47,254 nucleotides of DNA from a bacterium (GCA_021781955.1 JAJXVV010000006.1:1-47254); one strand, 5' to 3'; positions 3-46,903 are shown, numbered from the stretch's first letter. Numbers and translations are program-made. The notes: generated by a model from the sequence alone, not told the origin.

Positions 3-2852
3 TCGAGCCTTTCCAACGCCCTTCTCTCCACCAACGCCAACGGTTCCGTCGTCGCCACCACCTCAATCGGCACCAACCTCCTCTCCGGCACCCTCGGCAT
101 CGGACAAGGCGGCACTAACGCCACCTCGCAGACCACCAACGGCGTCAACTACTTCAACGGCACGAGCATCACGAGCGGTAGCAATCTCACGTGGAATGGA
201 ACGACATTTGTCTTGATAACACCGAGTAGCGCAAATGCCGGCAATGGCATCGAAATGTCGAGCGGCGCGACAAGCACGTTCCTGCACATCAATACGAGTG
301 GCAGTGCCTACAGTCCGCTCGTGCAACAAGGCGATACGCAACTTATCCTGAAAGGTTCTGCCGCGGACAGTGCCGATACTCCTGGCTTCGTCATCGCGCC
401 ATGGAGTGGGTCGTTGAAAGGGATCCGCTTGGATAACAACGGCAATCTCGGCATCGGCACGGCGAATCCAGCAGGCGCGTTTGAGACTTCAAACAGTTAC
501 AGCGGCACGAGCCAAGGCGGAGAAGCATATATCACTAACGCCTATAGCTCTGTCTCCGGCACACGCGTCTCCGACCTCACCTTCCGCTTGACCGATTCGG
601 TTGGGACTAAAAAGAATGCGGCAATGATACAAGCGCTCTCAAACAATCAAGATTCTTCAACCGGCGACAACTTGCTTTTCTACACGCGCACTGCCGATGC
701 TGCCCCGACAGAGAAGATGCGCCTCGATAACAACGGCAATCTCGGCATCGGGACCACGATCCCGGTATCAAACACCAACTACGGCGGACTCTCCCTCAAC
801 GGCACTTCGGGCGGTGTCTTTTCGCTCATGACCAACGGTTTGGAAACAGGAAGGGTACAAGAAGATGGCAACGGACTTTCTATAAATGAAATTGCCAGTC
901 TTCCGATAATGCTTCTCACAAGTGACGTTGAGCGTATGCGTGTGCTTGCAAACGGCAACGTCGGCATCGGCACTCCGACTCCCCAATACAACCTTGAGGT
1001 GCATGGACAGGAGAACGTATACAGCACCACGACGCCGATGACTGCGGCGACAGCAAATCAGTTGACAATCCGCGAGGCAACCAACAATCCTGCCTATAGC
1101 TTGGCCTTGGGATTCTTCGACAATGCCGGCGCTTACTACAGCGGCGTAATCCAGTCAACGAATGCCGGTTCGGGATCGTCTTTGCTGCTAAATCCCAATG
1201 GTGGCAACGTCGGCATCGGCACCACCTCACCCGCAACGAAGCTCGACGTATTCGGATCAGGCGGGACACCCAGTCTTTCAACGGACAATGGCCTGTTCCA
1301 GGTTGGACAGACTTATAACCACCTTCAAATCGGCGCAGACAACAACGTGCCGTACGAGATCTGGTTACAAACAAAAGATTCTAGAAATATTGGCGTGTCT
1401 TATCCGTTGTCGTTAAACCCCCTCGGCGGCAACGTCGGCATCGGGACCAATAATCCTGCATCCAAACTCGATGTCAAAGGTCCCGACACTTCTTCGACTA
1501 CGCTCAGCTTCCGCGTCACTGACTCCTCGACCAACCAGCTCTTCGCGATTGACGACTCCGGTGTTGCCTCAGTGGGTAATTCATCAGGCACCGGAGACGC
1601 TTCCGCGCAGTTCGCGGCCGACGTGAACGCATGGACGATCGGCTACCGCTCATCCGACAAAGCGTTCGTAATAGCTTCTTCAACGAATCTTTCGAGTGGT
1701 GCTGTGCTTGCGATCGCAAAGGGCGGCGCAGCAACCTTTAGTGAAGGTGTCGTACCGAACGCGACTAACAGCTACAACCTTGGCGTCTCGGGGGCCAACT
1801 GGAGCTGTCTCTACTACAACAACTCCACGCTCGGCACCTGTGCCTCTGACGAGCGCCTCAAGACCGACATCAACGACCTTTCTTTCGACTATGCGAGCTC
1901 CACTTTCGGCACCGCCTCGACGACCGCGCTTGAGCAGGTGTCGCAGTTGCGTCTGCGCACCTTCGCCTACAAAACGGCGACATCGAGCATATACGAAGGC
2001 CTCATCGCGCAAGAGGTTCTCCCGATCGCGCCGGAGCTTGTTTCGACATCGAGCAACGGCTACTACCAGCTTCAGTATGGCAGCATCCAGTGGCTCACGC
2101 TCCAAGCCCTGCAAGAACTCGACGCCAACGTAAACGGAATCGCAAGCGGCACGACGACAGCTTCGATATCGCCGCAGGCGCAGAGTTTCGTGACGAACTT
2201 CTTTGCTGGCCTCTTTGCGCGTCTCACCAACTGGTTCGCGAACGCGAACAACGGCATCGATAACCTCTTCGCCAAAAACCTCTATGCCAGCAACGTGACG
2301 GCAGACACGGGCACGTTCGGAACGCTCTGCGTTACCGACGCCGCCGGCAAGACCTGCATCACGCGCCCACAGCTCGACGCGCTCCTTGCGGCGGCCGGAC
2401 AGGCGAGCAGCGGAAATGCCCCAACGGCAGCCGCCGGAGGAAACACCTCCCCGGGAGGAATTACCTCCAGCAGCACGCCCCCGCAGCTCCAGGTCAACGG
2501 CAACAACCCCGCCACCGTGAATGTCGGCACCGCCTACGCCGACCTCGGCGCGACCATCACCGGCCCGCAGGGCGACACCAACCTCGGCATCAGCGCCTCG
2601 GTCGATGGCGCGACCTCGACGCCGGTTTCCGCCATCTCCATCGACACCAGCGTCGCCGGCACCCACACCATTCGCTACAGCGCCACCGACCAGCAGGGCC
2701 AGATCGGCACCGCGACCCGCACCGTCCAGGTCGTCGCGCCGACAGCGCAGCAGGGAAGCGCTGGAGGCGGCTCGTCAAGCGTCGCGACCTCGACAGCAAG
2801 CATTTCTGGCCAAGCCGCAACGACGAGCGCCGCAACCTCGACGGCGCAGTAA
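3..2852 (+). CDS. Large surface/fibre-like protein, 5'-truncated by the window: GN(L/V)GIGT repeats, Peptidase_S74-like intramolecular chaperone, C-terminal DUF5011-like Ig domain
   Basis: Frame is open from base 3 (SSLSNALLST...). It has five GN[LV]GIGT motifs, the S74-type motif CASDERLKTDI...GLIAQEV, a NGNNPATVNVG..YADLGA..IDTSVAGTHTIRYSATD Ig-like motif and Ser/Thr-rich linkers. Confidence 0.8.
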   Translation, partial: SSLSNALLSTNANGSVVATTSIGTNLLSGTLGIGQGGTNATSQTTNGVNYFNGTSITSGSNLTWNGTTFVLITPSSANAGNGIEMSSGATSTFLHINTSGSAYSPLVQQGDTQLILKGSAADSADTPGFVIAPWSGSLKGIRLDNNGNLGIGTANPAGAFETSNSYSGTSQGGEAYITNAYSSVSGTRVSDLTFRLTDSVGTKKNAAMIQALSNNQDSSTGDNLLFYTRTADAAPTEKMRLDNNGNLGIGTTIPVSNTNYGGLSLNGTSGGVFSLMTNGLETGRVQEDGNGLSINEIASLPIMLLTSDVERMRVLANGNVGIGTPTPQYNLEVHGQENVYSTTTPMTAATANQLTIREATNNPAYSLALGFFDNAGAYYSGVIQSTNAGSGSSLLLNPNGGNVGIGTTSPATKLDVFGSGGTPSLSTDNGLFQVGQTYNHLQIGADNNVPYEIWLQTKDSRNIGVSYPLSLNPLGGNVGIGTNNPASKLDVKGPDTSSTTLSFRVTDSSTNQLFAIDDSGVASVGNSSGTGDASAQFAADVNAWTIGYRSSDKAFVIASSTNLSSGAVLAIAKGGAATFSEGVVPNATNSYNLGVSGANWSCLYYNNSTLGTCASDERLKTDINDLSFDYASSTFGTASTTALEQVSQLRLRTFAYKTATSSIYEGLIAQEVLPIAPELVSTSSNGYYQLQYGSIQWLTLQALQELDANVNGIASGTTTASISPQAQSFVTNFFAGLFARLTNWFANANNGIDNLFAKNLYASNVTADTGTFGTLCVTDAAGKTCITRPQLDALLAAAGQASSGNAPTAAAGGNTSPGGITSSSTPPQLQVNGNNPATVNVGTAYADLGATITGPQGDTNLGISASVDGATSTPVSAISIDTSVAGTHTIRYSATDQQGQIGTATRTVQVVAPTAQQGSAGGGSSSVATSTASISGQAATTSAATSTAQ
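432..1446 (+). repeat. Five DNA-level copies of ggcaa(t/c)(c/g)tcggcatcgg inside the surface-protein gene
   Basis: Identical 26-mer gataacaacggcaatctcggcatcgg at 432-457 and 726-751; ggcaacgtcggcatcgg at about 954, 1203 and 1428. Confidence 0.85.
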
Positions 2853-38327: not shown

Positions 38328-39663
38328 AGGGATGTTCGTCGAACGCTTTCGTCCACACGCTCACGAAGCGCGGCAGCCAAGAATTGGCTGCCGCGCTTTT
38401 ATATGCCCAGGTTTTGTACGGCTTTCCCTCTCGTGAGAGGAGTTCCGGGTACGCGCCATGCTTTTCTATTTCCTGCCGAATTGCGCGGAGTATGCGGCGT
38501 GCTTCGTCCGCATATGCGCGCTCGTACGCGCCGAGGTCGAGCAGTCGGTCAGCGAATTCAGTGTTGAACGCGGGCCACACGGTGCGGCCTTGATACGATG
38601 GCGCGGCGACGCGGTGCACCGCGCGACGGCGCGGATTGCGCACCGACATGAGGTACAGTCCCGTTTTTTCATTACGGAACGCTGCCTCGTTGAGCACGAT
38701 ATCCGCGGTCGCACGAAAAAGGCGTCGCTCATGCGTGTCGGACAGATCCCAAAAACCATGCTGGGTATGTGCGAAATCCAACGACACATCGGCTGCAACG
38801 CTCGCAGCCTCCCGTTCAAGCGAGTGGCGGACATAGCCGCGATCGCCGAAGATGTCGAGAATGTCTGCTTTGTAGTGCTTGAGCGTGCGGCCGAGCAGCC
38901 GAGCAACAGTTTGGTCGTCGATGATGCCCAGATCCACGGCGCGCGCGAAGGTCGTCCAGGTGTTGGCATTGGTGACGAAGCGTAGTTTCTCTGCGCGTGT
39001 GTCGGTCGCTGAAGAGCGCGCCTTACTTGCGTCACACAACAGCCGCACGCGCTTCCCGAGCTTCACCCGTTCCAAACCACCTGCCAACTGTGTGAGTGCG
39101 GTGCGCAGATCGTTCCCGTACTCCGTGCGAGATTCCTGGCCAACAGCGCGCGCACGCGCGTAGACGTCCTCATACGCTGAACCTGCCGGCGCTTCGATGA
39201 GCTGGTCGAGCGCCGCGATGCTGCCGAGCAGCGAATCCGAAGGCGGCGAGAAATAATTCGCCCCCAGCATGCGCCGTTTTGTGAGCGGCACGAGCGTCGT
39301 CGTCACGTTGCCGCTCCGCACGCTTTCGAGCACGAGCCGCGCGCTGCGCTCCATAAGCACCACGCGCGCCTCGGCATCTTCTTCACTCACGATGGTGGCC
39401 GGATCGAGGAGCGCCGGATAGAACCAGGCGAAATTGCGCGGATAGTACGCGCGCGCATGAGGGGCGCCCGTCACGATGAACGGCAATTCTAGCGAAAAAG
39501 CAGAAGCGACTGCATGACGATAAATCGTGCTGAAGTCCCTGCGGCGCACGCGCGAGCGCGTGCGCCGCAGCCGGTCGCTCGCGAAATTATACATTTGTAT
39601 CGCGTTGGCAATGCTCTGCGCGAGCCTACCCGAGTAGACCCGCACCTGTCGTTTTGAGTTCAT
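38311..39663 (-). CDS. Putative six-hairpin glycoside hydrolase (glycogen-debranching/invertase-like)
   Basis: TGAPH..YYPRNF, YQGRTVWP and YPELL..GKPY motifs resemble (alpha/alpha)6 glycosidases; assignment is tentative. Confidence 0.55.
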   Translation of the reverse strand: MNSKRQVRVYSGRLAQSIANAIQMYNFASDRLRRTRSRVRRRDFSTIYRHAVASAFSLELPFIVTGAPHARAYYPRNFAWFYPALLDPATIVSEEDAEARVVLMERSARLVLESVRSGNVTTTLVPLTKRRMLGANYFSPPSDSLLGSIAALDQLIEAPAGSAYEDVYARARAVGQESRTEYGNDLRTALTQLAGGLERVKLGKRVRLLCDASKARSSATDTRAEKLRFVTNANTWTTFARAVDLGIIDDQTVARLLGRTLKHYKADILDIFGDRGYVRHSLEREAASVAADVSLDFAHTQHGFWDLSDTHERRLFRATADIVLNEAAFRNEKTGLYLMSVRNPRRRAVHRVAAPSYQGRTVWPAFNTEFADRLLDLGAYERAYADEARRILRAIRQEIEKHGAYPELLSREGKPYKTWAYKSAAANSWLPRFVSVWTKAFDEHPFNPTR

Positions 39664-39674
39664 AAAGTAACCAG

Positions 39675-39745
39675 TGGACCTACGGGGAGTCGGACCCCGA
39701 CCTCGTCCATGCCATGGACGCGTTCTACCGCTGAACTATAGGCCC
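39675..39745 (-). tRNA. tRNA-Ala(GGC)
   Basis: Acceptor GGGCCTA/TAGGTCC with G3:U70; anticodon cgtcc-atGGCat-ggacg; T-loop reads TCCGACT. Confidence 0.92.
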
Positions 39746-39820
39746 AAGTGAAGAACAATGCGGAAGCTCGCTCGCATTTTTCCCGAACGCCAGGTCTACA
39801 TGGCTTCCGCATATAGGCCC
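39746..39820 (-). ncRNA. 75-nt structured leader of tRNA-Ala(GGC), copy A
   Basis: 62/75 ungapped identity with 45261-45335; TAGTAT -10 box 10 nt upstream. Confidence 0.65.
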
Positions 39821-39861
39821 GAATTCATGAATACTAGCAAAAAGTGATAGGATGAGCCATC

Positions 39862-39933
39862 CCCCGCGTCGTTCAATGGATAGGACGCAAGCTTCCGGAG
39901 CTTGTAATGTGGGTTCGATTCCTGCCGCGGGGA
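39862..39933 (+). tRNA. tRNA-Arg(CCG)
   Basis: Acceptor CCCCGCG/CGCGGGG; anticodon caagc-ttCCGga-gcttg; abuts the prs stop codon. Confidence 0.95.
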
Positions 39934-40890
39934 CTAATCGGTTTCGAACAATTCGCTCAACGATTCGTCGCTCTCCAAACGGCGGATGGCCTCAGCGAAA
40001 AGCTCGCCGACCGAGATAACTTCGATCTTATCCGCAAGCGTGCGGCCGGTCGAGACGGAATCGGTGATGAAAAGCTTCTTGATAGCGGACTTCTGCACGG
40101 TCTCGACGGCAGCGCCGGAGAGGACGCCGTGCGTCGCGGTCGCGTAGATCTCGCGCGCGCCGCTCTCGACGAGGAGATCAGCGGCGCGGGAAAGCGTGCC
40201 GCAGGTGTCGGCCATGTCATCGGTGATAAGTGCGACCTTGCCTTTCACGTCGCCGACGAGCTTCATGTGCGCAACCTGGTTCGGGATGTCGCGCTCCTTA
40301 TGGATGATGGCGAGCTCGCCCTCTCTCATGAGCCGCTTGCCATAGGATTGCGCGCGCACCACGCCGCCCGCATCGGGAGAGACGACCACAAGCTCGTCCC
40401 GCGAGAGCGCGTCCTTGAAGAGCTCCTTGAAATGCGGGACGAAGACGCGGCGCGCGTAGAGGTTGTCGACGATGGTCTTGCGGAAAAAGCCGCCGATGGC
40501 GTCGTTGTGGAGGTCGAGCGTGAGCAGGCGATCGGCGCCCATGCTCTCGAGCATGGTGGCGAAAACGCGCGCCGAGATCGGTTCGCGGGATTTCGTCTTA
40601 CGGTCCTGGCGCGAGTATCCGAAGTACGGCATGACGACCGTGATTTCGTGCGCGGAGGCGCGCCGAGCCGCGTCGAGCGCCAAAAGCAGCCGCACCCAAT
40701 TCTCAGCGGGCGGATTGGTCGATTGCACGAGGAACACGTGTTTGCCGCGCAGATTCTCTAGGAACTGAACCTGCTGCTCTCCGTCGGAGAAGGCGCGACA
40801 TTTGACGGCGCCGAGCGGAACATTCAAATTCTCGGAAATCTTCTGCGCCAATCCGTCGTTGCTGCCGAGACTGAAGAGCTTGTACTCCAT
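39934..40890 (-). CDS. prs: Ribose-phosphate pyrophosphokinase
   Basis: FSDGE, PYFGYSRQDRK, DLH, VSPDAGG and DDMADTCGT motifs. Confidence 0.97.
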   Translation of the reverse strand: MEYKLFSLGSNDGLAQKISENLNVPLGAVKCRAFSDGEQQVQFLENLRGKHVFLVQSTNPPAENWVRLLLALDAARRASAHEITVVMPYFGYSRQDRKTKSREPISARVFATMLESMGADRLLTLDLHNDAIGGFFRKTIVDNLYARRVFVPHFKELFKDALSRDELVVVSPDAGGVVRAQSYGKRLMREGELAIIHKERDIPNQVAHMKLVGDVKGKVALITDDMADTCGTLSRAADLLVESGAREIYATATHGVLSGAAVETVQKSAIKKLFITDSVSTGRTLADKIEVISVGELFAEAIRRLESDESLSELFETD

Positions 40891-40915
40891 TGAGAGCCTA
40901 GTATAGCAGATGATT

Positions 40916-40986
40916 TCGGGATGCCGAGAATCGAACTCGGGCTACAAGCACCCCATGCTTGCGTACTACCACTATACGACATCCCG
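40916..40986 (-). tRNA. tRNA-Pro(GGG)
   Basis: Acceptor CGGGATG/CATCCCG; anticodon caagc-atGGGgt-gcttg. Confidence 0.93.
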
Positions 40987-41014
40987 TTCTGGTCCGATGC
41001 GATCAGGTCCTGTT

Positions 41015-41085
41015 TCGGGCCGCCGGGAATCGAACCCGGTCTTTACGCACCCGAAGCGCACGTACTACCGGTATACTACGGCCCG
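41015..41085 (-). tRNA. tRNA-Pro(CGG)
   Basis: Acceptor CGGGCCG/CGGCCCG; anticodon tgcgc-ttCGGgt-gcgta. Confidence 0.93.
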
Positions 41086-41147
41086 AAACAGAACCCCATC
41101 CATCCGTGACATATATGTATACCATGCCGCCAGCCTATTCCCCAGCA

Positions 41148-41183
41148 TAAAAAAGCGACCCCGAGGCTTGGGCCTGGGGTCGC
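41148..41183 (-). terminator. Intrinsic terminator downstream of the small Cys-rich gene
   Basis: gcgacccc..aggc/gcct.ggggtcgc hairpin with an A-run on the plus-strand left side (T-run on minus). Confidence 0.75.
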
Positions 41184-41237
41184 GAAGTAAGTGTCCTGCG
41201 TCTATCGCGCAGTGTTTTAGAATTCGATCACCTCCCT

Positions 41238-41519
41238 TCACGCATGACCGCATTCCGCGTCATTGTCGAGGAAACGCAGGACGCAGGCATTACTGCAGAA
41301 CACCAGCATTCCGTAAATGTCGGCGCCATTGCACTTGTAAAGCGTCGGGAACGCGCGCCCGTTCTTCAGCCTGAAGCGAGTGCCGCAAGCTGGACACGTG
41401 TGCGCTTGTTCCGGGCTTACGTGGTGGTCTTCAGCGAAGAATCCTCCGTTCATCGGATATGGTGAGCCGATAGGGATAGTCGGCTGCGGGTCAAGCATCG
41501 GGATCATATCGCCCTCCAT
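41238..41519 (-). CDS. Small Cys-rich putative zinc-finger protein
   Basis: CPACG..FCSNAC treble-clef-like ligands; followed by a terminator. Confidence 0.55.
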   Translation of the reverse strand: MEGDMIPMLDPQPTIPIGSPYPMNGGFFAEDHHVSPEQAHTCPACGTRFRLKNGRAFPTLYKCNGADIYGMLVFCSNACVLRFLDNDAECGHA

Positions 41520-41681
41520 CGTTCAAGAGACACCTTGTGGAAGGATTCGTATCCGAGAGATAAACGCCAATGTCAGTCTTTGCCAGGACACCTCCTATGC
41601 AATTATCAGAGAACTTGCTCATCCTACACCTATCCGAGCGATTTGCATCATCGTTCGCCAAACTTGTGGACAAGCACCGCT

Positions 41682-41732
41682 GTGAGTCTCTACCAGTCCG
41701 CTCGCACCTATTTTAGCAGAAAACAGGGGTAA
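41682..41732 (+). other. Detached native C-terminal tail of LSR1 (left att junction)
   Basis: gtg agt ctc tac cag tcc gct cgc acc tat ttt agc aga aaa cag ggg taa; aligns without gaps to the tail at 47131-47184. Confidence 0.75.
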
Positions 41733-42049
41733 ATACCCCTTCATTCGGGGGTGGTTTACCCCATCATGCACCCCATCATGCGGTACCCCTCGGCATGATG
41801 GGGTAGCTCACCTCGATATTGGCTTTAATGCTAGGCTTTTCGGTGGTCGCTCTCAAAAATCCTAAGTCCTACTTCACTCCGCTCCAGCCCCTTGCTGTCG
41901 CTCCGTGAAGGGCGGCCACGGAGTACCGTGTCCGCCCCTCCGCAATTCCGAGTCTGTGCCTCGGCCTTCTCCTTCCGTCCCGCAGTTTCTTTTTTGTTGG
42001 GGGGGTTAGAACCACGAGAAAAAAGGATGGGACGGGAAGGGGGAAGGCC
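41725..42049. repeat. Origin-like repeat and hairpin region of element 1
   Basis: accccatcatgc tandem at 41758-41769 and 41770-41781, inverted at 41793-41804; IR at 41725-41740; long imperfect hairpin at 41963-42049. Confidence 0.7.
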
Positions 42050-42092
42050 TCGTTTCCGGGGGTCGTAAGTGGGTATAATCTACCTAATAGCT

Positions 42093-42929
42093 ATGCCTGA
42101 ACCGAGACGAAAAAAGTTCGAAAGAGGCCATGCCAACGACCCCCTACAATTGACTCCCCGCGATATATCCATACTACGGGATGTTGCCGAGTACCGCTTT
42201 CTGAACTCGGAGCAGCTTTTAGCACTCCACCCCGGCGGAGAGCGCAATCTCAAACAGCGCTTGCACCTGCTATACCGCCACGGACATCTCGACCGCCCCG
42301 ACGTTCAGAAAAGGGCCTTGCTCGCTTCTTCCCACATCGTCTATGCTCTCGACCGAAGGGGCGCGGAGGTTTTGGGCAAGGACGCGCAGGAGCGCGAAGG
42401 ACTGTTTCGCCGCATCCGCGAGCTTGAGCATACCTCGCCGCTCATCGCCCACGCGTTGATGATTTCACAATTCAGAGTGTGTCTTACGCTCGCCCTTAAA
42501 AGTCGTCCGAGCGTGAAGCTGATACGCTGGACGCAGGGCAACGACTTGAAAGTTCTGTTGCGGAGGCGCGGCGAAAATCCATCGCTCGTGCCGGACGCCT
42601 TTTTCATATTGGAAACGTCCGAGTTCAACTATCCGTGTTTTCTCGAAGCGGATCGCGGGACGATGACGCAGGAACGATACGTGAACAAGCTCCGTATGTA
42701 CTGGCAATACTGGCGCGAGGAAGGTTTCAGCAGGTCGCTCGGCATTACCCATTTCCGTGTCCTCACGATTACTCCCAACGAGAAGCGAGCGGAGAATCTT
42801 TGCCTAGCGGCCAAAGAAGCCGACGCCCGCAAACAAGGCAGCGGCATGTTCCTGTTCATGTCCGAGACGGCATACGGCACGACGAGGCCGGATGCGATCG
42901 TGCAGGCCGCGTGGAAGTGCCCGAAGTGA
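42093..42929 (+). CDS. Replication-relaxation family protein (PF13814-like)
   Basis: LTPRD..IL..V..YRFL..EQL wHTH; PDA..FLEADRGTM..KL..Y PD-(D/E)xK-like motifs; TATAAT upstream. Confidence 0.82.
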   Translation: MPEPRRKKFERGHANDPLQLTPRDISILRDVAEYRFLNSEQLLALHPGGERNLKQRLHLLYRHGHLDRPDVQKRALLASSHIVYALDRRGAEVLGKDAQEREGLFRRIRELEHTSPLIAHALMISQFRVCLTLALKSRPSVKLIRWTQGNDLKVLLRRRGENPSLVPDAFFILETSEFNYPCFLEADRGTMTQERYVNKLRMYWQYWREEGFSRSLGITHFRVLTITPNEKRAENLCLAAKEADARKQGSGMFLFMSETAYGTTRPDAIVQAAWKCPK

Positions 42930-43043
42930 TACTGTAAAGTGATATGACCGAGACCGATGACGAGAGAAAATTAAGGGAAGAGAGGGAAAGCCAAGCGTTA
43001 CAAACCCTTGAGGGGTTATCGGTGATGACGCTATACTGTCGAT

Positions 43044-44594
43044 ATGCCCCTCTACTTCCTCTACGCCCGCAAGTCCACCGACACCGAGGACATGCAAGTC
43101 CTCTCTATCGAAAGCCAGCTCGCCGAGCTGCGCGAGATCGCCAAGCGTGAGGGCATCGAGATCGGGCGTGAGTTCGTCGAGAAGCAGTCAGCCAAGAGAC
43201 CCGGCCGCCCAGTCTTCAACGAGATGCTCTCCCGTATCGAGAGGGGCGAAGCGTCCGGAATCCTATGCTGGAAGATAGACCGCCTCTCGCGCAATCCGGT
43301 GGACAGCGGCCGCGTGAGCTGGCTCCTGCAGCAGGGAACCATACAGAGCATCACGACCCATGAGCGCACCTTCTGTCCGACAGATAACGTGCTCGTGATG
43401 TCCGTCGAGTTCGGAATGGCCAATGAGTACGTGCGGCAGCTTGCCGCCAACACTTCGCGCGGATTGAGAGCGAAGGCGCGTCTCGGCCACTACCCCTGCA
43501 ACGCTCCCGTCGGATACCTCAACAATCCGCGCACCAAGACCATCGTCGTGGACAAACGCAGAGCGTCCATTGTCCGCGCCGCCTTCGAGCTGTATGCCGA
43601 GAACAAGTCCCGCCTCGAAGACGTGAGCCGCTTCCTCTTCGAGAGCGGCATCAGGACGAATGCGGGAAGGCGGCTCGGGAACGGCGGCAAGCCGCTCACC
43701 CGAGACCAGATCAAGCGCCTCCTCTCCAATCCCTTCTATTACGGCCACTTCCGCTTCAAGGGAGAGATGTACGAAGGCAGGCATGCGCCCATCGTCGAAA
43801 AGTCCCTTTTCGACCAGGTGCAGAAGGTATTGCAGCTGCGCGGCAGGCCGCACAAGGAACCTAAAAACAACGCACAGGCGCTCTGCGGACTGCTCCGCTG
43901 CGGCGAGTGCGGGATGAGCGTCACCGCCGAGGTGAAGTTCAAATATCAGAAGAACGGCAACGTCCACCGCTACGTCTATTACCGCTGTACCAAGAAGAAA
44001 GGTTCCTGTTCCCAGCCCCACATCCGCGAAGAGCGTCTCGTCTTGCAGGTGAACGAGCTTCTCGAAGAGTTCACTATGTCCAAGACGTGCGCCGACGAGC
44101 TGCTCCGGCTCTCGGCGGAGGACGAGAAGGAGGCTGCTGCTGCCGCTGTCTCCGCCATCCAAGCCCTGCGGGCGGAGATCGAGGAGAAGAGCGAGAAGCT
44201 CGCCCGCCTTACCGACCTCTACGTTGAGCAGGATATAGCACGGCATGACTATCTCGAAAGGAAGGCCGCCCTCATGTCCGACAAGAGGTCGGAAGAGGAG
44301 CAGATCGTCAAACTTGAACGAGACGCCGCTTCATGGCTCGAACCTCTGCGCAACTGGATATCCGAGGCTCAAACGCTGGACGAAATACGAAAAAACAGCG
44401 ACCTCCCCTCCAAAAAATCCTCCCTCCAAAAAATCTCAGGATCGAACCCGTCCTTAAGAGACCGTCTTATCGAATTTAATCCCATCCCGCCATACGCTTC
44501 GCTCCGCGAAGCGCGTCAAAATTTCTCTGTAAATCAGTCCTGTATTTTATGGGTGCACCCTATAGGATTCGAACCTATGACCTTTCGAATGTGA
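43044..44594 (+). CDS. Large serine recombinase LSR1; last 13 aa encoded by the tRNA-Val antisense strand
   Basis: YARKS catalytic Ser, GRPVF, DRLSRN, PVGY recombinase domain, CGECG..YYRC zinc ribbon, coiled coil; ends WVHPIGFEPMTFRM. Confidence 0.93.
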   Translation: MPLYFLYARKSTDTEDMQVLSIESQLAELREIAKREGIEIGREFVEKQSAKRPGRPVFNEMLSRIERGEASGILCWKIDRLSRNPVDSGRVSWLLQQGTIQSITTHERTFCPTDNVLVMSVEFGMANEYVRQLAANTSRGLRAKARLGHYPCNAPVGYLNNPRTKTIVVDKRRASIVRAAFELYAENKSRLEDVSRFLFESGIRTNAGRRLGNGGKPLTRDQIKRLLSNPFYYGHFRFKGEMYEGRHAPIVEKSLFDQVQKVLQLRGRPHKEPKNNAQALCGLLRCGECGMSVTAEVKFKYQKNGNVHRYVYYRCTKKKGSCSQPHIREERLVLQVNELLEEFTMSKTCADELLRLSAEDEKEAAAAAVSAIQALRAEIEEKSEKLARLTDLYVEQDIARHDYLERKAALMSDKRSEEEQIVKLERDAASWLEPLRNWISEAQTLDEIRKNSDLPSKKSSLQKISGSNPSLRDRLIEFNPIPPYASLREARQNFSVNQSCILWVHPIGFEPMTFRM

Positions 44595-44627
44595 ATCGAA
44601 CGCTCTAACCAGCTGAGCTAAGGGTGC
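44554..44627 (-). tRNA. tRNA-Val(CAC)
   Basis: Acceptor GCACCCT/AGGGTGC; anticodon ttcga-ttCACat-tcgaa; GGTTCGAATCC T-arm. Confidence 0.95.
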
Positions 44628-44677
44628 CCTGCCCCGAGAAGATCGAGGGGGTTCGCAAAGGATACTCTATTTCTCGC

Positions 44678-44686
44678 TGTGGATAA
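44678..44686 (-). promoter_or_regulatory. DnaA box between divergent tRNA-Val and tspO
   Basis: TGTGGATAA is a perfect TTATCCACA on the minus strand; function is not established. Confidence 0.45.
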
Positions 44687-44728
44687 AGGGAGTGGCGCGG
44701 ACGAGCGGTATGCATATATGCTAGTGGC

Positions 44729-45199
44729 ATGGACAAGCACCTGCGTACCGCCGCCCCTTTCATCGGCGTTTTCGCGGCAGGCATCGTCGGCATGCTCTTC
44801 GTCGGACAGAGCGTCGGCATCTGGTATGCCAACCTCAACCTGCCCCCTTTCACGCCGCCGACCGTCGCGTTCCCCGTTGTCTGGACCTTCCTCTACCTCA
44901 TCACGGCGACCGCGTGCGCGATCGTCTGGCGCAAAGAGCCGCAGAACGATCACACCGAGGGCTGGGTGCGTTATTTTTTTGTGCAACTTTTCATTAACGC
45001 GGGCTGGGTCATCTTTTTCTTCGGCTTTCACTCGATCACGGTCGCATTCGTCGACAACTTCATACTCGTATTCATCGTGCTCGGGCTGACGGCGAGCGCG
45101 TGGGAAATCGATCGCACCGTCACCTACCTCATGCTCCCCTATTTGCTGTGGGTCGTCTTCGCGCTCTACCTCACGATGGAGATATGGTCTCTGAATTAG
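44729..45199 (+). CDS. tspO: TspO/MBR tryptophan-rich sensory protein
   Basis: WYANLNLPPFTPP..FPVVWTFLY, QL..N..W..FFG and LMLPYLLW..FA motifs. Confidence 0.93.
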   Translation: MDKHLRTAAPFIGVFAAGIVGMLFVGQSVGIWYANLNLPPFTPPTVAFPVVWTFLYLITATACAIVWRKEPQNDHTEGWVRYFFVQLFINAGWVIFFFGFHSITVAFVDNFILVFIVLGLTASAWEIDRTVTYLMLPYLLWVVFALYLTMEIWSLN

Positions 45200-45260
45200 G
45201 TTTTGAGTGTACACTGATCGATTGAGAGAACTCTTTTTGTTTGCTATATTTCTTCAGCAA

Positions 45261-45335
45261 GGGTCTATATACGGAAGTCACATAGACCCGGCGTCCGGAG
45301 AAAATGTAAGCGAGCTTCCGCTTTGTTCCTCACTT
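45261..45335 (+). ncRNA. 75-nt structured leader of tRNA-Ala(CGC), copy B
   Basis: Homologous to the reverse complement of 39746-39820; GGGTCTAT/ATAGACCC stem and CGGAAG/CTTCCG pairing; TATATT -10 box 10 nt upstream. Confidence 0.65.
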
Positions 45336-45409
45336 GGGCCTATAGTAAAGTGGTATTACGCGGCATTCGCATTGCCGAGTCCGGGGTTCGACTCCCCGTA
45401 GGTCCACCA
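45336..45409 (+). tRNA. tRNA-Ala(CGC)
   Basis: Acceptor GGGCCTA/TAGGTCC with G3:U70; anticodon cggca-ttCGCat-tgccg; CCA end. Confidence 0.95.
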
Positions 45410-46903
45410 AATTTGATTTGCCGAAGAAGTTGCCTCGGGGCTTCGCCCCTCGGCATTGGTTTCCGCCAAGAAATTCCAGGGGGTTTTGAAATCCGCCAAA
45501 AGCATTCCCGCCGAAAGTCGGCGGTTCGAGCCGATGGAAACAAGAAAATCTCTCGCCCCCGAGGGATTTTCTTGTTTGGAGAGATTTTCGGCTTGGTTGG
45601 CTTCAGTAATCCAGTTTCGCATGAGTTCGAGCCAATGATTACCTTTTCGCTCAAAATCCGATAATTTCTCCTCAAATGTTTTCTTTTCCGCCATTAAAAC
45701 ATTCTTTTTCTCTTGATACTCGCCAAGTTCCAACGCCTCGCCAAGATATGCGTCTGTAAGGCGTTCTAGTCGCGTTTTAATGGCGGAAATTTGATCGCGG
45801 AGATTTTGAGCGAAAAGGTCTGATGAGTGGCGGGATTCCTTATTCTCATTTTCCAGTTTTGCTAAAAACTTTTCCCGCCACTCATCGGGCAAAGAAACTT
45901 TTTGACACAGATTTTTCACTTGTTCAGTCAAAACATCTTCCCGCAAAAAGCGATTTTCAGAACATTTGATAGTTTTGCTCTTGTGGGTGCAACGATAGTA
46001 AATAAATTTCAAACCACTTTTCTTTATGTGTCTTTCGGCGGTTATGGCATAGCCACATACCCCACAAGTAGCAAAACCTAAAAACTGAAAATTCTTTGGT
46101 CCTCGCTTTTTGCGGGGCTTCCCATTCTGAACAAGTGCTGTTTGGATTTGGTCAAAAAGTCTCTTTGCAATCATTGGCTTATGCGAACCCACATGCACCT
46201 CGCCACGATATTGAAAATGTCCATAGTAAAAGGGATTTTTCAAAATATGTTCAATACTGGCGAGGTGCAAGGGTTTGCCTGTTTTGCTAACCAAGCCAAG
46301 AGAAAACATTTTGCGCTGAATTGCCGTGAGCGTATATTGTCCCGTAGCAAAAGCCCCTAACGCTTCTTTTACTTTGCCAAAGGTCTTTTTGTCCGGCTCA
46401 ATAGTTCGCAATCTCGGCTCATTGAAATATCCCAAAGGGGCTTTTGCTGAAAGTTCGCCACGGCGTATTTTTTGGCGAATACCACGCAAAATGTTTTCTC
46501 TTAAATTGTCGGTGTAATACTTTGCTTGTCCGAAGGCGACACTCAACATAAATTTTCCTTGGGGTGTCGCCTCGAACCAGAAAGTAGGGAATTTTAGCGA
46601 TTGGATTTTGAGAGTATCAACAAGGTAAATCACACGCCCACCATCAATCGAGTTGCGAGCTAAACGGTCTGGATTCCACGCTAAAATTCCCTGTGCATTG
46701 CCTTTTTCAATTTCGCCAAGCATTTCGTTAAATACTTCACGACCTGGCTCTTTGGCGGTTTTGCTCTCGTAAAATTCTTTTTCAACGAAAAGGTTGTTTT
46801 GCTTGGCGAATTCCCGAAGCTCCGTCAGTTGCGCCTCAATAGACAAAACTTGGCGTTCTTCGTCCTCTGATGATTTACGACAATAAATAAAGTATTTGAT
46901 CAT
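45356..46903 (-). CDS. Large serine recombinase LSR2; last 15-17 aa encoded by the tRNA-Ala antisense strand
   Basis: YCRKSS, PGREVF, DRLARN, PLGY, CGVCG..YYRC and coiled coil; ends QIWWTYGESNPGLGNANAA; visibly AT-richer than host genes. Confidence 0.93.
   Translation of the reverse strand: MIKYFIYCRKSSEDEERQVLSIEAQLTELREFAKQNNLFVEKEFYESKTAKEPGREVFNEMLGEIEKGNAQGILAWNPDRLARNSIDGGRVIYLVDTLKIQSLKFPTFWFEATPQGKFMLSVAFGQAKYYTDNLRENILRGIRQKIRRGELSAKAPLGYFNEPRLRTIEPDKKTFGKVKEALGAFATGQYTLTAIQRKMFSLGLVSKTGKPLHLASIEHILKNPFYYGHFQYRGEVHVGSHKPMIAKRLFDQIQTALVQNGKPRKKRGPKNFQFLGFATCGVCGYAITAERHIKKSGLKFIYYRCTHKSKTIKCSENRFLREDVLTEQVKNLCQKVSLPDEWREKFLAKLENENKESRHSSDLFAQNLRDQISAIKTRLERLTDAYLGEALELGEYQEKKNVLMAEKKTFEEKLSDFERKGNHWLELMRNWITEANQAENLSKQENPSGARDFLVSIGSNRRLSAGMLLADFKTPWNFLAETNAEGRSPEATSSANQIWWTYGESNPGLGNANAA
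45404..45527. repeat. 124-bp perfect inverted repeat, left copy (3' end of LSR2 plus the tRNA CCACCA)
   Basis: Base-by-base reverse complement of 47010-47133. Confidence 0.95.

Follow-up and report, generated by a model that had tools for sequence, protein, structure and literature searches.

Two genes for tRNA-Ala in a stretch of bacterial DNA of 47,254 nt (GCA_021781955.1 JAJXVV010000006.1:1-47254; the whole stretch is called the window below) are each preceded directly by 75 nt of closely similar sequence. The locus raises two questions: (i) whether these leaders fold into a structured RNA and, if so, into which structure; and (ii) what such a structure would do immediately in front of a tRNA.

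Layout of the two leaders

Both tRNA genes are called by ARAGORN and Rfam. Their leaders lie at 39746-39820 on the minus strand (leader A, before tRNA-Ala(GGC)) and at 45261-45335 on the plus strand (leader B, before tRNA-Ala(CGC)), and the reverse complement is needed for copy A only. Aligned without gaps, the leaders are identical at 62 of 75 positions (83%; E 2e-16 in the 741-kb genome). Each starts 10 nt past a -10-like hexamer, begins with a copy of tRNA nt 1-9, and has tRNA G1 directly 3′ of it. This layout had been described in the original prediction, which was made from the window's sequence alone, and it is confirmed. The prediction also paired leader nt 1-9 with nt 21-29, a helix that we call P1; in leader B the pairing is perfect over 8 bp, and in leader A two of the pairs are G.U and one position is a C.A mismatch. 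Both leaders contain the loop CGGAAG and a downstream CTTCCG, which had been proposed to form a pseudoknot (Table 1).

Known RNA families do not account for the leaders. No match centred on either leader was obtained at E<=10 over 39500-40000 and 45100-45600 with Rfam 15, including its T-box, self-cleaving ribozyme and tRNA-like entries, and tRNA alone passed the gathering score in the window. The sole weak match overlapping leader B, to SCARNA21 at 12.4 bits (gathering score 60), is noise. A tRNA-like structure or degenerate tRNA copy was rejected, because neither ARAGORN nor RF00005 called a cloverleaf in the leaders, only the true tRNAs, and the similarity to tRNA is confined to nt 1-9.

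Table 1. Positions of leader segments and adjacent features in the window
Feature	Position	Strand	Basis or remark
tRNA-Ala(GGC)	39674..39745	-	nt 1-9 (39737-39745) are the H1 3′ strand
Leader A tail, H2 3′ strand	39746..39756	-	ends at tRNA -1; alignment and pair counts
Leader A apical hairpin P2	39757..39781	-	alignment A7, columns 21-55
Leader A spacer nt and H2 5′ strand	39782..39791	-	alignment A7, columns 11-20; pair counts
Leader A segment a′	39792..39801	-	8/9 pairs with either a (P1) or tRNA nt 1-9 (H1)
Leader A P1 loop	39802..39811	-	complementary to P2 3′ strand in this genome; 10-nt Watson-Crick run; 0/200 shuffles as long
Leader A segment a, P1 5′ arm	39812..39820	-	copy of tRNA-Ala(GGC) nt 1-9; 9/9 identity
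Leader A -10-like hexamer TAGTAT	39831..39836	-	read from sequence; 10 nt before leader
Leader B -10-like hexamer TATATT	45245..45250	+	sequence and family spacing
Leader B segment a	45261..45269	+	copy of tRNA-Ala(CGC) nt 1-9; T at position 4 where the tRNA has C
Leader B P1 loop	45270..45279	+	6-nt Watson-Crick run with P2 3′ strand; shuffle p 0.065
Leader B segment a′	45280..45289	+	model R2 match 45280-45345, 69.9 bits; alignment A7, first row
Leader B spacer and H2 5′ strand	45290..45299	+	alignment and pair counts
Leader B apical hairpin P2	45300..45324	+	imperfect in leader B; alignment A7
Leader B tail, H2 3′ strand	45325..45335	+	alignment and pair counts
tRNA-Ala(CGC)	45336..45409	+	nt 1-9 (45336-45344) are the H1 3′ strand

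The hairpin and its alternative fold

The universal unit of the family to which the leaders belong is a single long irregular hairpin of about 66 nt. At its base, H1 joins a 10-nt arm of the unit, a′, to nt 1-9 of whatever RNA lies downstream; in the window leaders, this arm is leader nt 20-29 and its partner is tRNA nt 1-9. In H2, a stem that is conserved in sequence and contains three near-invariant pyrimidine-pyrimidine mismatches, the segment past a′ is paired with the last 11 nt of the leader; P2 is a variable apical stem. This hairpin, the main structure, had escaped the original prediction. The CGGAAG/CTTCCG pseudoknot in particular fails as a family feature: a Watson-Crick run of at least 6 between the loop and downstream sequence is found in 18/66 units, usually with another segment as the partner, and the pseudoknot itself is specific to some lineages.

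The structure consists of 26 modelled pairs (9 in H1, 7 in H2 and 10 in P2) and three fixed mismatches. Over 119 units, 87% of 3039 cells are paired, compared with 39-50% when the partners are slid; the covariation score is 0.58 and drops to 0.12-0.16 with slid partners, and none of 500 shuffles scores as high. H1, H2 and P2 all covary, with double changes in 25 of the 26 pairs, and P2 is 90% paired over the 119 units with double changes in 10/10 pairs. In 112/121 units, 7 or more of the 9 downstream nt are paired with the a′ arm, which was located solely by its position beside the conserved linker; the mode is 5 under a null in which a′ is set against another unit's downstream sequence. The boundary between H2 and H1 falls at tRNA +1 in 60 of the 64 tRNA-linked units and at -1 in the other 4. 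The covariation, together with the lack of an Rfam match, upholds the earlier proposal of an unrecognised structured RNA.

The irregularities of the hairpin are conserved as well. The three near-invariant mismatches, C.U, U.C and C.U, are present in 117, 115 and 118 of 119 units, respectively, and together with a C.A at position 4 they are kept across families. Exactly one non-Watson-Crick pair is found within downstream nt 1-7 in 70/119 units, and H1 is therefore usually slightly weaker than a true acceptor stem. G.U pairs in the stems (119 cells) do not exceed A.C mismatches (143 cells), which is unusual for a helix selected solely as sense-strand RNA; read on the opposite strand, the fixed mismatches are G.A pairs.

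In tRNA-linked units, the upstream copy of tRNA nt 1-9, designated a, can pair with a′ to form P1, a mimic of the acceptor stem. The copy agrees with the tRNA at 9/9 positions in 39 and at 8/9 in 17 of the 64 units. Because a can take a′ by forming P1, the pre-tRNA would have two mutually exclusive folds: in one, the hairpin, with its 26 or so pairs, would keep the tRNA 5′ strand locked; the other would combine P1 and H2/P2 with a free cloverleaf. P1 and H1 are equal in strength in 43 of the 64 units, with H1 stronger in 12 and P1 stronger in 9. In some units, such as L046, P1 is kept by a compensatory change that departs from the tRNA sequence, and in others (L062, L093 and L112) H1 is kept at the expense of P1. 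In 23/66 copy-bearing units the first base of a TANNNT hexamer is 15-16 nt upstream of the copy, and in 36/66 it is 11-20 nt upstream; the distance from the -10 hexamer to the copy is the same as that to tRNA +1 in the leaderless genes of this genome (8-11 nt). By this predicted promoter position, the module would sit at transcript starts.

Distribution and genomic contexts

This genome contains four units: the two before tRNA-Ala, one before tRNA-Lys(UUU) (C9:125065-125134) and one about 115 nt upstream of the 16S rRNA gene (C11:52853-52917, minus strand). The earlier observation that no other tRNA has the element thus holds for the five others in the window, but not for the genome. A third tRNA-Ala gene (UGC), on C8, has no family match. 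Covariance-model matches were found in 91/116 genomes of the genus, 43/151 of the order and 13/151 of the phylum, at 0 to 26 copies per genome, and the tRNA-Ala(CGC) unit recurs in other families of the order. The family is a widespread hairpin unit of tiny-genome (Patescibacteria-type) bacteria and is apparently undescribed, in that no published description of it was found in the literature.

One might explain the 83% identity of the two window copies and their shared position before tRNA-Ala by chance, or by recent duplication of a single tRNA-Ala locus. This explanation is ruled out for all practical purposes by the wide distribution of the family in the genus and beyond, its association with many tRNA types and its compensatory changes; here too the original prediction, which had set its leader apart from a simple duplication, was right.

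Specificity for tRNA-Ala did not survive the wider search. Units occur before at least 10 tRNA types, before some mRNAs and rRNA, and in some 3′ regions. Housekeeping genes preceded by units include those for tRNAs, the 16S leader, rplJ, rplP and dnaA, and the unit is also found near promoters of tmRNA-proximal genes. The original prediction had named a dispersed repeat unrelated to tRNA-Ala as a finding that would count against it, and half of this applies: the family is dispersed, but its association with tRNA 5′ ends is strong, with 64/119 units abutting a tRNA +1. Not all units are leaders. Of the 55 non-tRNA units, 15 are followed by no more than the end of a convergent ORF, and for 9 the next 250 nt are empty; one unit sits between a stop codon and a terminator hairpin. 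Tandem units exist.

The leader is missing from 25/35 orthologous tRNA-Ala genes. Because copy numbers vary so widely among relatives and many of these orthologs are leaderless, the module is dispensable. The nearest core relative of a unit is in another genome for 48/59 units and in the same genome for 7/59, and mean core identity is 0.48 within genomes versus 0.51 between genomes. Units look long-lived at their loci and vertically inherited in appearance.

Possible functions and comparison with known systems

What the unit does can be addressed through several scenarios. The one we prefer, with a probability of roughly 0.42, is that the leaders are a two-state module for processing or gating of the 5′ end, predicted to be transcribed and possibly containing an RNase III-type site; its probable role is to gate the RNA's 5′ end or to fix where that end lies. 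Acting in 5′-end maturation, the long hairpin would either gate a nuclease specific for double strands or be its site. The preferred candidate is RNase III, because its gene is present (an open frame of 235 aa matching PF14622 at 130.7 bits, G000:C2:41872-42264) and because the helix has a tandem mismatch at its centre, and the modelled helix is longer than the approximately 20 bp required of an RNase III substrate. The genome also has an RNase P RNA gene. After cutting, or instead of it, segment a would displace the tRNA 5′ strand, allowing the tRNA to fold and RNase P to finish the end. The scenario draws on the covariation and exact register of the hairpin, the predicted promoter position, the balance between P1 and H1, the fixed mismatches, the apparent age of units at their loci, the housekeeping genes that they precede and the control of RNase P cleavage by synthetic leaders (PMC8925977). 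Against it stand the lack of a G.U excess, the units that are not leaders and the dispensability of the module. In every modelled fold the tail is also base-paired to -1, an arrangement expected to impede RNase P, not to assist it. We know of no RNase III site that makes a tRNA 5′ end. A bolder form of the idea, which we consider improbable, is a natural programmable 5′-end cassette, in which the 9-10-nt arm would be a guide picking the bond to cut in the following tRNA, mRNA or rRNA leader, through a double-stranded RNase III site or through catalysis of its own, and the acceptor-stem decoy would release the product. If true, such a cassette would give reduced genomes exact 5′ ends independent of RNase P.

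The main rival to the processing module holds that the unit is a palindromic piece of DNA, selfish or mobile in the past, of the kind of REP, MITE or Rickettsia palindromic elements, and that it inserts at tRNA position 9/10 with duplication of tRNA nt 1-9. The RNA folds would then only keep the insertion harmless, and it is in the DNA that hairpin recognition, or template switching in quasi-palindromes, would preserve the pairing. The original prediction had also raised an element targeting tRNA 5′ ends with a 9-bp duplication, and in form this stands: a direct repeat of 9-10 nt flanks one unit, the frequent matches of a to the tRNA have the form of MITE-type target repeats, and the -10 spacing to the upstream copy is that of a leaderless tRNA start. 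The tandem units, the range of copy number, the mixed contexts including 3′ regions and the lack of a G.U excess also favour it, as do two units of genome G026 that are 1.2 kb apart and have cores 96% identical and unrelated arms. In one subfamily, the P1 loop and tail are inverted repeats near both ends of the repeat-flanked segment; inverted repeats near the ends are found in only 18/66 units. The family is, like REP/RAYT or IS200/IS605 sequences, a dispersed imperfect palindrome with conserved mismatches. Against this, the core is conserved while the inner a′ varies by locus and matches its own flank, which a cut-and-paste element cannot carry, and correction of the palindrome would erase the position-4 C.A and the three pyrimidine mismatches. 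Core identity is no higher within genomes than between them; recent bursts are not seen, because the nearest relative of a unit so rarely lies in its own genome, and near-identical copies from recent spread were not found within genomes among 59 units. For the one transposase type compared, Y1 (HUH), there was no co-occurrence with units in four genomes (Y1 genes/units 0/4 in G000, 0/11 in G011, and 13/0 in each of G024 and G027). On balance we regard a mobile origin as somewhat unlikely.

Three further scenarios assign the leader another role in RNA. A regulatory switch on RNase P access, quite improbable in our estimation, would have a ligand or protein stabilise the long hairpin, hiding -11 to +9 and tuning tRNA, rRNA and ribosomal-protein output together, with no separate nuclease site. 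The two exclusive folds with equal helix strength, conserved internal mismatches that could form a binding pocket and a growth-related gene set are consistent with a switch, and the principle has been shown with synthetic constructs, at least those described in PMC8925977. A switch fits poorly with the lack of a known candidate ligand or partner, the units in 3′ regions, a conserved part that is mostly helical rather than a complex junction, and dispensability in many relatives. A self-cleaving ribozyme is very unlikely; it would bind its substrate through a′ and cut where the leader ends, like the 5′ hammerhead of engineered guide-RNA cassettes. The guide arm, conserved core, hairpin and conserved tail and the boundary exactly at +1 would suit such a ribozyme, but the Rfam search returned no known class, the core forms an almost unbroken helix, with pyrimidine mismatches of a simple kind, and not a compact catalytic junction, the upstream copy would inhibit formation of the substrate helix, and the product would bear a 5′-OH, which is unusual for a tRNA. 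Equally little credence is given to a processive antitermination or Nus-factor leader, like boxA/boxB or put, protecting highly transcribed untranslated RNAs from termination. Units do lie just past promoters of tRNA, rRNA, tmRNA-proximal and ribosomal-protein genes, and the linker holds CGCUC, which is contained in boxA of phage lambda. However, boxA acts single-stranded, and the boxA-like segment here is base-paired with covariation; antitermination also leaves the pairing of a′ with +1 to +9 and the exact register unexplained, and some units are in 3′ regions.

Finally, we compare the proposed processing module with known systems. The RNase III processing hairpins of phage T7 R1.1 and rRNA leader stems are reportedly irregular, with about 26-30 pairs and a conserved central internal mismatch. 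The unit resembles them in being a long irregular hairpin with a central mismatch, and in its association with rRNA, ribosomal-protein and phage-type transcripts; those sites, however, are not known to take a strand from the 5′ end of a tRNA or to come with a decoy hairpin of their own, and the site in the unit is a candidate. REP/BIME sequences with their RAYT transposases, and IS200/IS605 ends with their internal DNA guides, are dispersed imperfect palindromes with conserved mismatches. As in the unit, the hairpin has at its 5′ foot a few nucleotides complementary to a neighbouring cleavage or target sequence, but their guide is 4-5 nt, whereas that of the unit is 9-10 nt and matches a different flank at each locus; nor do units accompany Y1 transposases, and they look vertically inherited. 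With RNase P external guide sequences (PMC3479136), a target-complementary strand creates an acceptor-stem-like helix and cutting occurs at the 5′ end of the paired target; the unit has its guide in cis, with a paired linker after it in place of a free ACCA end, and the would-be leader is base-paired. Another parallel is with synthetic RNase P riboswitches (Ender et al. 2022, PMC8925977), in which a pre-tRNA leader that is locked in a hairpin or free decides 5′-end maturation by controlling RNase P cleavage. Those constructs are engineered, respond to theophylline and hide the leader only, whereas the unit is natural, has no known ligand, extends its pairing into tRNA nt 1-9 and brings the competing strand with it.

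Leaders of the window and the wider family

The leader element is real and conserved, its structure is well supported and its scope is wider than was first thought; it has apparently gone undescribed so far. The suggestion that it is an unrecognised ncRNA agrees with the Rfam search, which at gathering thresholds returned only tRNAs across the window. With permissive filters (E ≤ 10) applied to two 500-nt regions, Rfam gave no meaningful match on either leader, and in none of the papers returned by full-text literature searches, judged by titles and abstracts, was such a leader described.

Much of the original prediction about the two leaders themselves was confirmed. They are 83% identical without gaps (BLAST, E 2e-16), each starts 10 nt past a −10-like hexamer and ends at G1 of the tRNA, and both open with a copy of nt 1-9 of the tRNA. 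The predicted leader hairpin and the CGGAAG/CTTCCG complementarity are also seen in both. In all, ARAGORN annotates seven tRNAs in the window. BLAST detected no further copies of the leader sequence in the window's own genome (741 kb, 12 contigs); a covariance-model search recovered four family members, hereafter units, each with a core hairpin of ~66 nt (see table), and found none at tRNA-Ala(UGC) of the same genome. Contigs from three metatranscriptome runs of the same study cover neither leader (39500-45600; share 0.00 in each) and are uninformative on expression.

Leaders, adjoining tRNA genes and family units in the window and its genome
Feature	Location	Strand	Remark
tRNA-Ala(GGC)	39674-39745	-	ARAGORN, Rfam concurs
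tRNA-Ala(CGC)	45336-45409	+	ARAGORN, Rfam concurs
Leader A	39746-39820	-	75 nt upstream of tRNA-Ala(GGC)
Leader B	45261-45335	+	75 nt upstream of tRNA-Ala(CGC)
Units 1 and 2			upstream of the two leader-bearing tRNA-Ala genes of the window
Unit 3	contig C9		ends precisely at G1 of tRNA-Lys(UUU)
Unit 4	contig C11		~115 nt 5′ of the 16S gene

Several other features were noted. Leader A and tRNA-Arg(CCG) are divergently transcribed, so that both promoters must fit in the 41-nt spacer between them (window 39821-39861). About 100 nt 3′ of tRNA-Ala(GGC) there is a GC-rich perfect inverted repeat (39535-39575, minus-strand reading) with weak sub-threshold Rfam matches, including COG2827 RNA at 19.7 bits against a gathering threshold of 49.1. 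An 88-nt ARAGORN tRNA of undetermined type with a two-base anticodon, at 16049-16136 of contig C6 of the same genome, lies in apparent coding sequence and is probably a false call.

The proposed link to tRNA-Ala proved too narrow, because units also precede other tRNA types, the 16S gene and ORFs. BLAST matches covering the leader occur in several of 61 related genomes, one of them from another family, and among the fetched loci 10 of 35 distinct tRNA-Ala genes carry the leader. A covariance model built on these 10 leaders (R1) matches 91 of 116 genomes of the genus (E ≤ 0.01), with a maximum of 14 copies per genome, and 43 of 151 sampled genomes of the order (E ≤ 0.001). A second model, R2, represents the core hairpin alone; it matches 13 of 151 sampled genomes of the phylum, with a maximum of 26 copies. 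Genome contigs were also scanned for the linker motif followed, after a gap of 25-50 nt, by the tail motif. Among the matches listed, which included chance matches in unrelated high-GC genomes, one of 80 re-scored loci passed R2, and the only named record to do so was a MAG labelled 'Patescibacteria group bacterium'.

Structure of the core and its fit to tRNA genes

The structural analysis rests on an alignment of 119 units (A7). From a pooled sample of 141 distinct model matches in 125 fetched loci, 121 matches whose conserved linker motif lay at the expected distance were kept (the 20 dropped include partial and reverse-strand matches), giving 118 distinct stretches from a′, a 10-nt arm, through downstream nt 10. 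Leader B was entered by hand because its linker is one base off the anchor pattern. The units are 60-72 nt long, nearly all 64-72. The sample is non-random, being enriched in top-scoring matches and in genomes picked for high copy number, and tRNA-Ala is therefore over-represented.

The core consists of three nested stems. H1 joins a′ to the first 9 nt downstream (85% of cells paired, with both-side changes in 9 of 9 pairs), H2 joins the linker to the last 11 nt of the leader (86%), and the apical stem P2 is 90% paired, with double changes in all 10 of its pairs. One H2 pair is G-C in 91 units and A-U in 16, and the adjoining pair is C-G in 59 and U-A in 31. None of 500 column shuffles matched the observed pairing or covariation score. 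When the partners are slid by 1-3 columns, pairing falls to 39-50% and the covariation score from 0.58 to 0.12-0.16; covariation counts are inflated by shared descent, but these slid controls retain the relatedness and still lie far below the observed values.

The helix is not perfect. H2 holds three near-invariant pyrimidine-pyrimidine mismatches (in 117, 115 and 118 of the 119 units), two of them adjacent and at about the midpoint of the whole helix; read on the opposite strand, they would be G·A pairs. A K-turn reading of this region was dropped because the mismatches have no adjoining bulge, as was a single-stranded boxA reading of the linker, which is paired. Within the first seven positions, 70 of the 119 units have exactly one non-Watson-Crick pair; it is an A of a′ facing C4 of both its partners in the units of Ala and Lys and in several of those of Arg and Ile. 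Over the A7 stems, G·U pairs (119 cells) are not in excess of A·C mismatches (143 cells).

Sixty-four of the 119 units abut a tRNA, and the boundary between H2 and H1 falls at tRNA +1 in 60 of these and one base off in the other four. Together these tRNAs represent 19 anticodons; their amino acids are Ala, Arg, Trp, Lys, Met, Ile, Asp, Thr, Pro and Phe. In the tRNA-linked units, a copy of tRNA nt 1-9 sits 4-12 nt 5′ of a′; it is identical to the tRNA at 9 of 9 positions in 39 units and at 8 of 9 in 17. Because of this match, a′ has two possible partners: with the copy it forms a helix termed P1, and with the tRNA it forms H1. By number of pairs the two are level in 43 units, with H1 ahead in 12 and P1 in nine, and each has been maintained through its own compensatory changes, in different lineages. 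Upstream, −10 hexamers peak 10 nt 5′ of the copy, the first hexamer base lying 15-16 nt upstream in 23 of 66 units. As read from the sequence, the spacing from −10 to copy equals that from −10 to +1 in leaderless tRNA genes of the window's genome. ViennaRNA predicts P1, H2/P2 and the cloverleaf for leader B and the Lys unit; for leader A the predicted fold is swapped, with the upstream copy paired to the 3′ strand of the tRNA.

The CGGAAG/CTTCCG pseudoknot, originally put forward as one possible fold, is a lineage feature and does not define the family: a Watson-Crick run of at least 6 between the P1 loop and downstream sequence is present in only 18 of 66 units. The loop is complementary to the tail, at 3-4 nt from the tail's end, in an Ala/Trp subfamily, and to the 3′ strand of P2 in the genome of the window. 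Two other explanations of the tRNA-like start were discarded. An intron between tRNA nt 9 and 10 is at odds with the complete downstream tRNA and the absence of a bulge-helix-bulge motif, and a degenerate tandem tRNA with a similarity that stops at nt 9.

Two unusual arrangements were seen at tRNA loci. In locus L030 (genome G015), a truncated 5′ tRNA-Ala half, comprising the acceptor, D arm and a partial anticodon stem, lies downstream of the promoter and ~55 nt upstream of the complete tRNA-Ala(CGC) (1501-1572, minus strand); it may be an intermediate or another kind of duplicated leader. The tRNA genes 3′ of the units in L044 (G063) and L087 (G099) have long insertions past the anticodon-stem region and look like intron-bearing genes; ARAGORN consequently misses or mis-sizes them.

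Units away from tRNA genes

The remaining 55 units lie away from a tRNA +1, and their context classes rest on crude ORF calls. A same-strand ORF or tRNA starts within 250 nt of 31 of them, the genes including rplJ, rplP and dnaA (N-terminal sequences read by eye); 15 have a convergent ORF end as the sole downstream feature, and nine have nothing nearby. One unit lies 65 nt 5′ of a tmRNA gene, another is flanked by a stop codon and a terminator hairpin, and tandem units also occur. The upstream copy is weak in non-tRNA units, mostly 5-6 of 9, but H1 still forms, with at least 7 pairs in 47 of the 55.

In genome G053 (L138, L142, L146, L149 and L153), the unit is inside a longer repeat, with a conserved GC-rich hairpin ~50 nt upstream and often a terminator-like hairpin directly 3′, an arrangement that suggests a small stand-alone transcript or a 3′-UTR element. 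Conservation between genomes is also seen in the unidentified sequences downstream of the units at L072 and L110, and at L071 and L103, which match no Rfam family at the gathering level and may represent additional unnamed small RNAs.

Proposed function and origin

There are several properties to be explained: a helix anchored at +1, an a′ arm tuned to each locus, a competitor strand before tRNAs, a conserved middle stem bearing mismatches, a start-of-transcript position on housekeeping RNAs, and long residence at loci. The likeliest reading, at somewhat under even odds, is that the unit is an RNA-level module for 5′-end maturation. The RNA can fold in two ways, and every step beyond these we infer. 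The long hairpin, with ~26 pairs and a central internal mismatch, could be a site for a double-strand-specific nuclease. RNase III (contig C2, 41872-42264) and RNase P RNA (contig C10, 122131-122474) are both encoded in the genome, and cleavage by RNase III would leave a 5′ phosphate, as a tRNA needs. Alternatively, the hairpin would merely hide positions −11 to +9 from RNase P. Formation of P1 would then remove a′ and, with H1 weaker than a genuine acceptor stem owing to its single mismatch, the tRNA would be expected to fold. Complements of the linker or tail were sought in the RNase P RNA, and none of 6 nt or longer was found, one GCGAGG excepted.

The main rival reading, which we consider less likely, is that the unit is a selfish palindrome, a REP-like or MITE-like insertion with a target duplication. 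Copy number spans 0 to 26, the unit is absent from many orthologous tRNA genes, some units are not leaders, and the promoter spacing and direct repeat resemble an insertion at tRNA position 9/10. Two neighbouring units in one genome have cores that are 96% identical and arms that are unrelated. The failure of G·U pairs to exceed A·C mismatches also fits an insertion and counts against the maturation reading, being usually atypical of a helix selected solely as sense RNA. Recent spread, however, is argued against by the lack of extra likeness within genomes: mean variable-core identity is 0.48 within and 0.51 between genomes, and 48 of 59 units have a nearest relative from a different genome. 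A selfish palindrome of this kind would be unusual in that its arms adapt to each flank and that it occupies the first bases of tRNAs without breaking them. The two readings would be compatible if the unit arose by insertion and its RNA then came under selection.

Y1 transposases were considered as mobilisers and dropped, because their genes do not co-occur with the units. Y1-transposase-like open frames (~220-270 aa) occur in 108 of the genus's 116 genomes, with a maximum of 16 in one genome, numbers that are very high for such small genomes (e.g., G089, G118 and G063); the genus-wide search found none in the window's own genome.

Under either reading the family merits a curated model, and units abutting tRNA genes could mislead gene callers and 5′-end prediction. 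If the unit does its work as RNA, it would constitute a built-in two-state device for 5′-end maturation, common to tRNA, rRNA and ribosomal-protein transcripts of a large, poorly understood bacterial group. Because its arm can be re-targeted, with at least 19 tRNA targets, it would then also be a compact natural part for RNA processing design. In the designed constructs of PMC8925977, a hairpin covering the leader controls RNase P; an RNA-level role would make the unit the first natural pre-tRNA leader known that pairs with the acceptor strand of its tRNA and carries a matching decoy.
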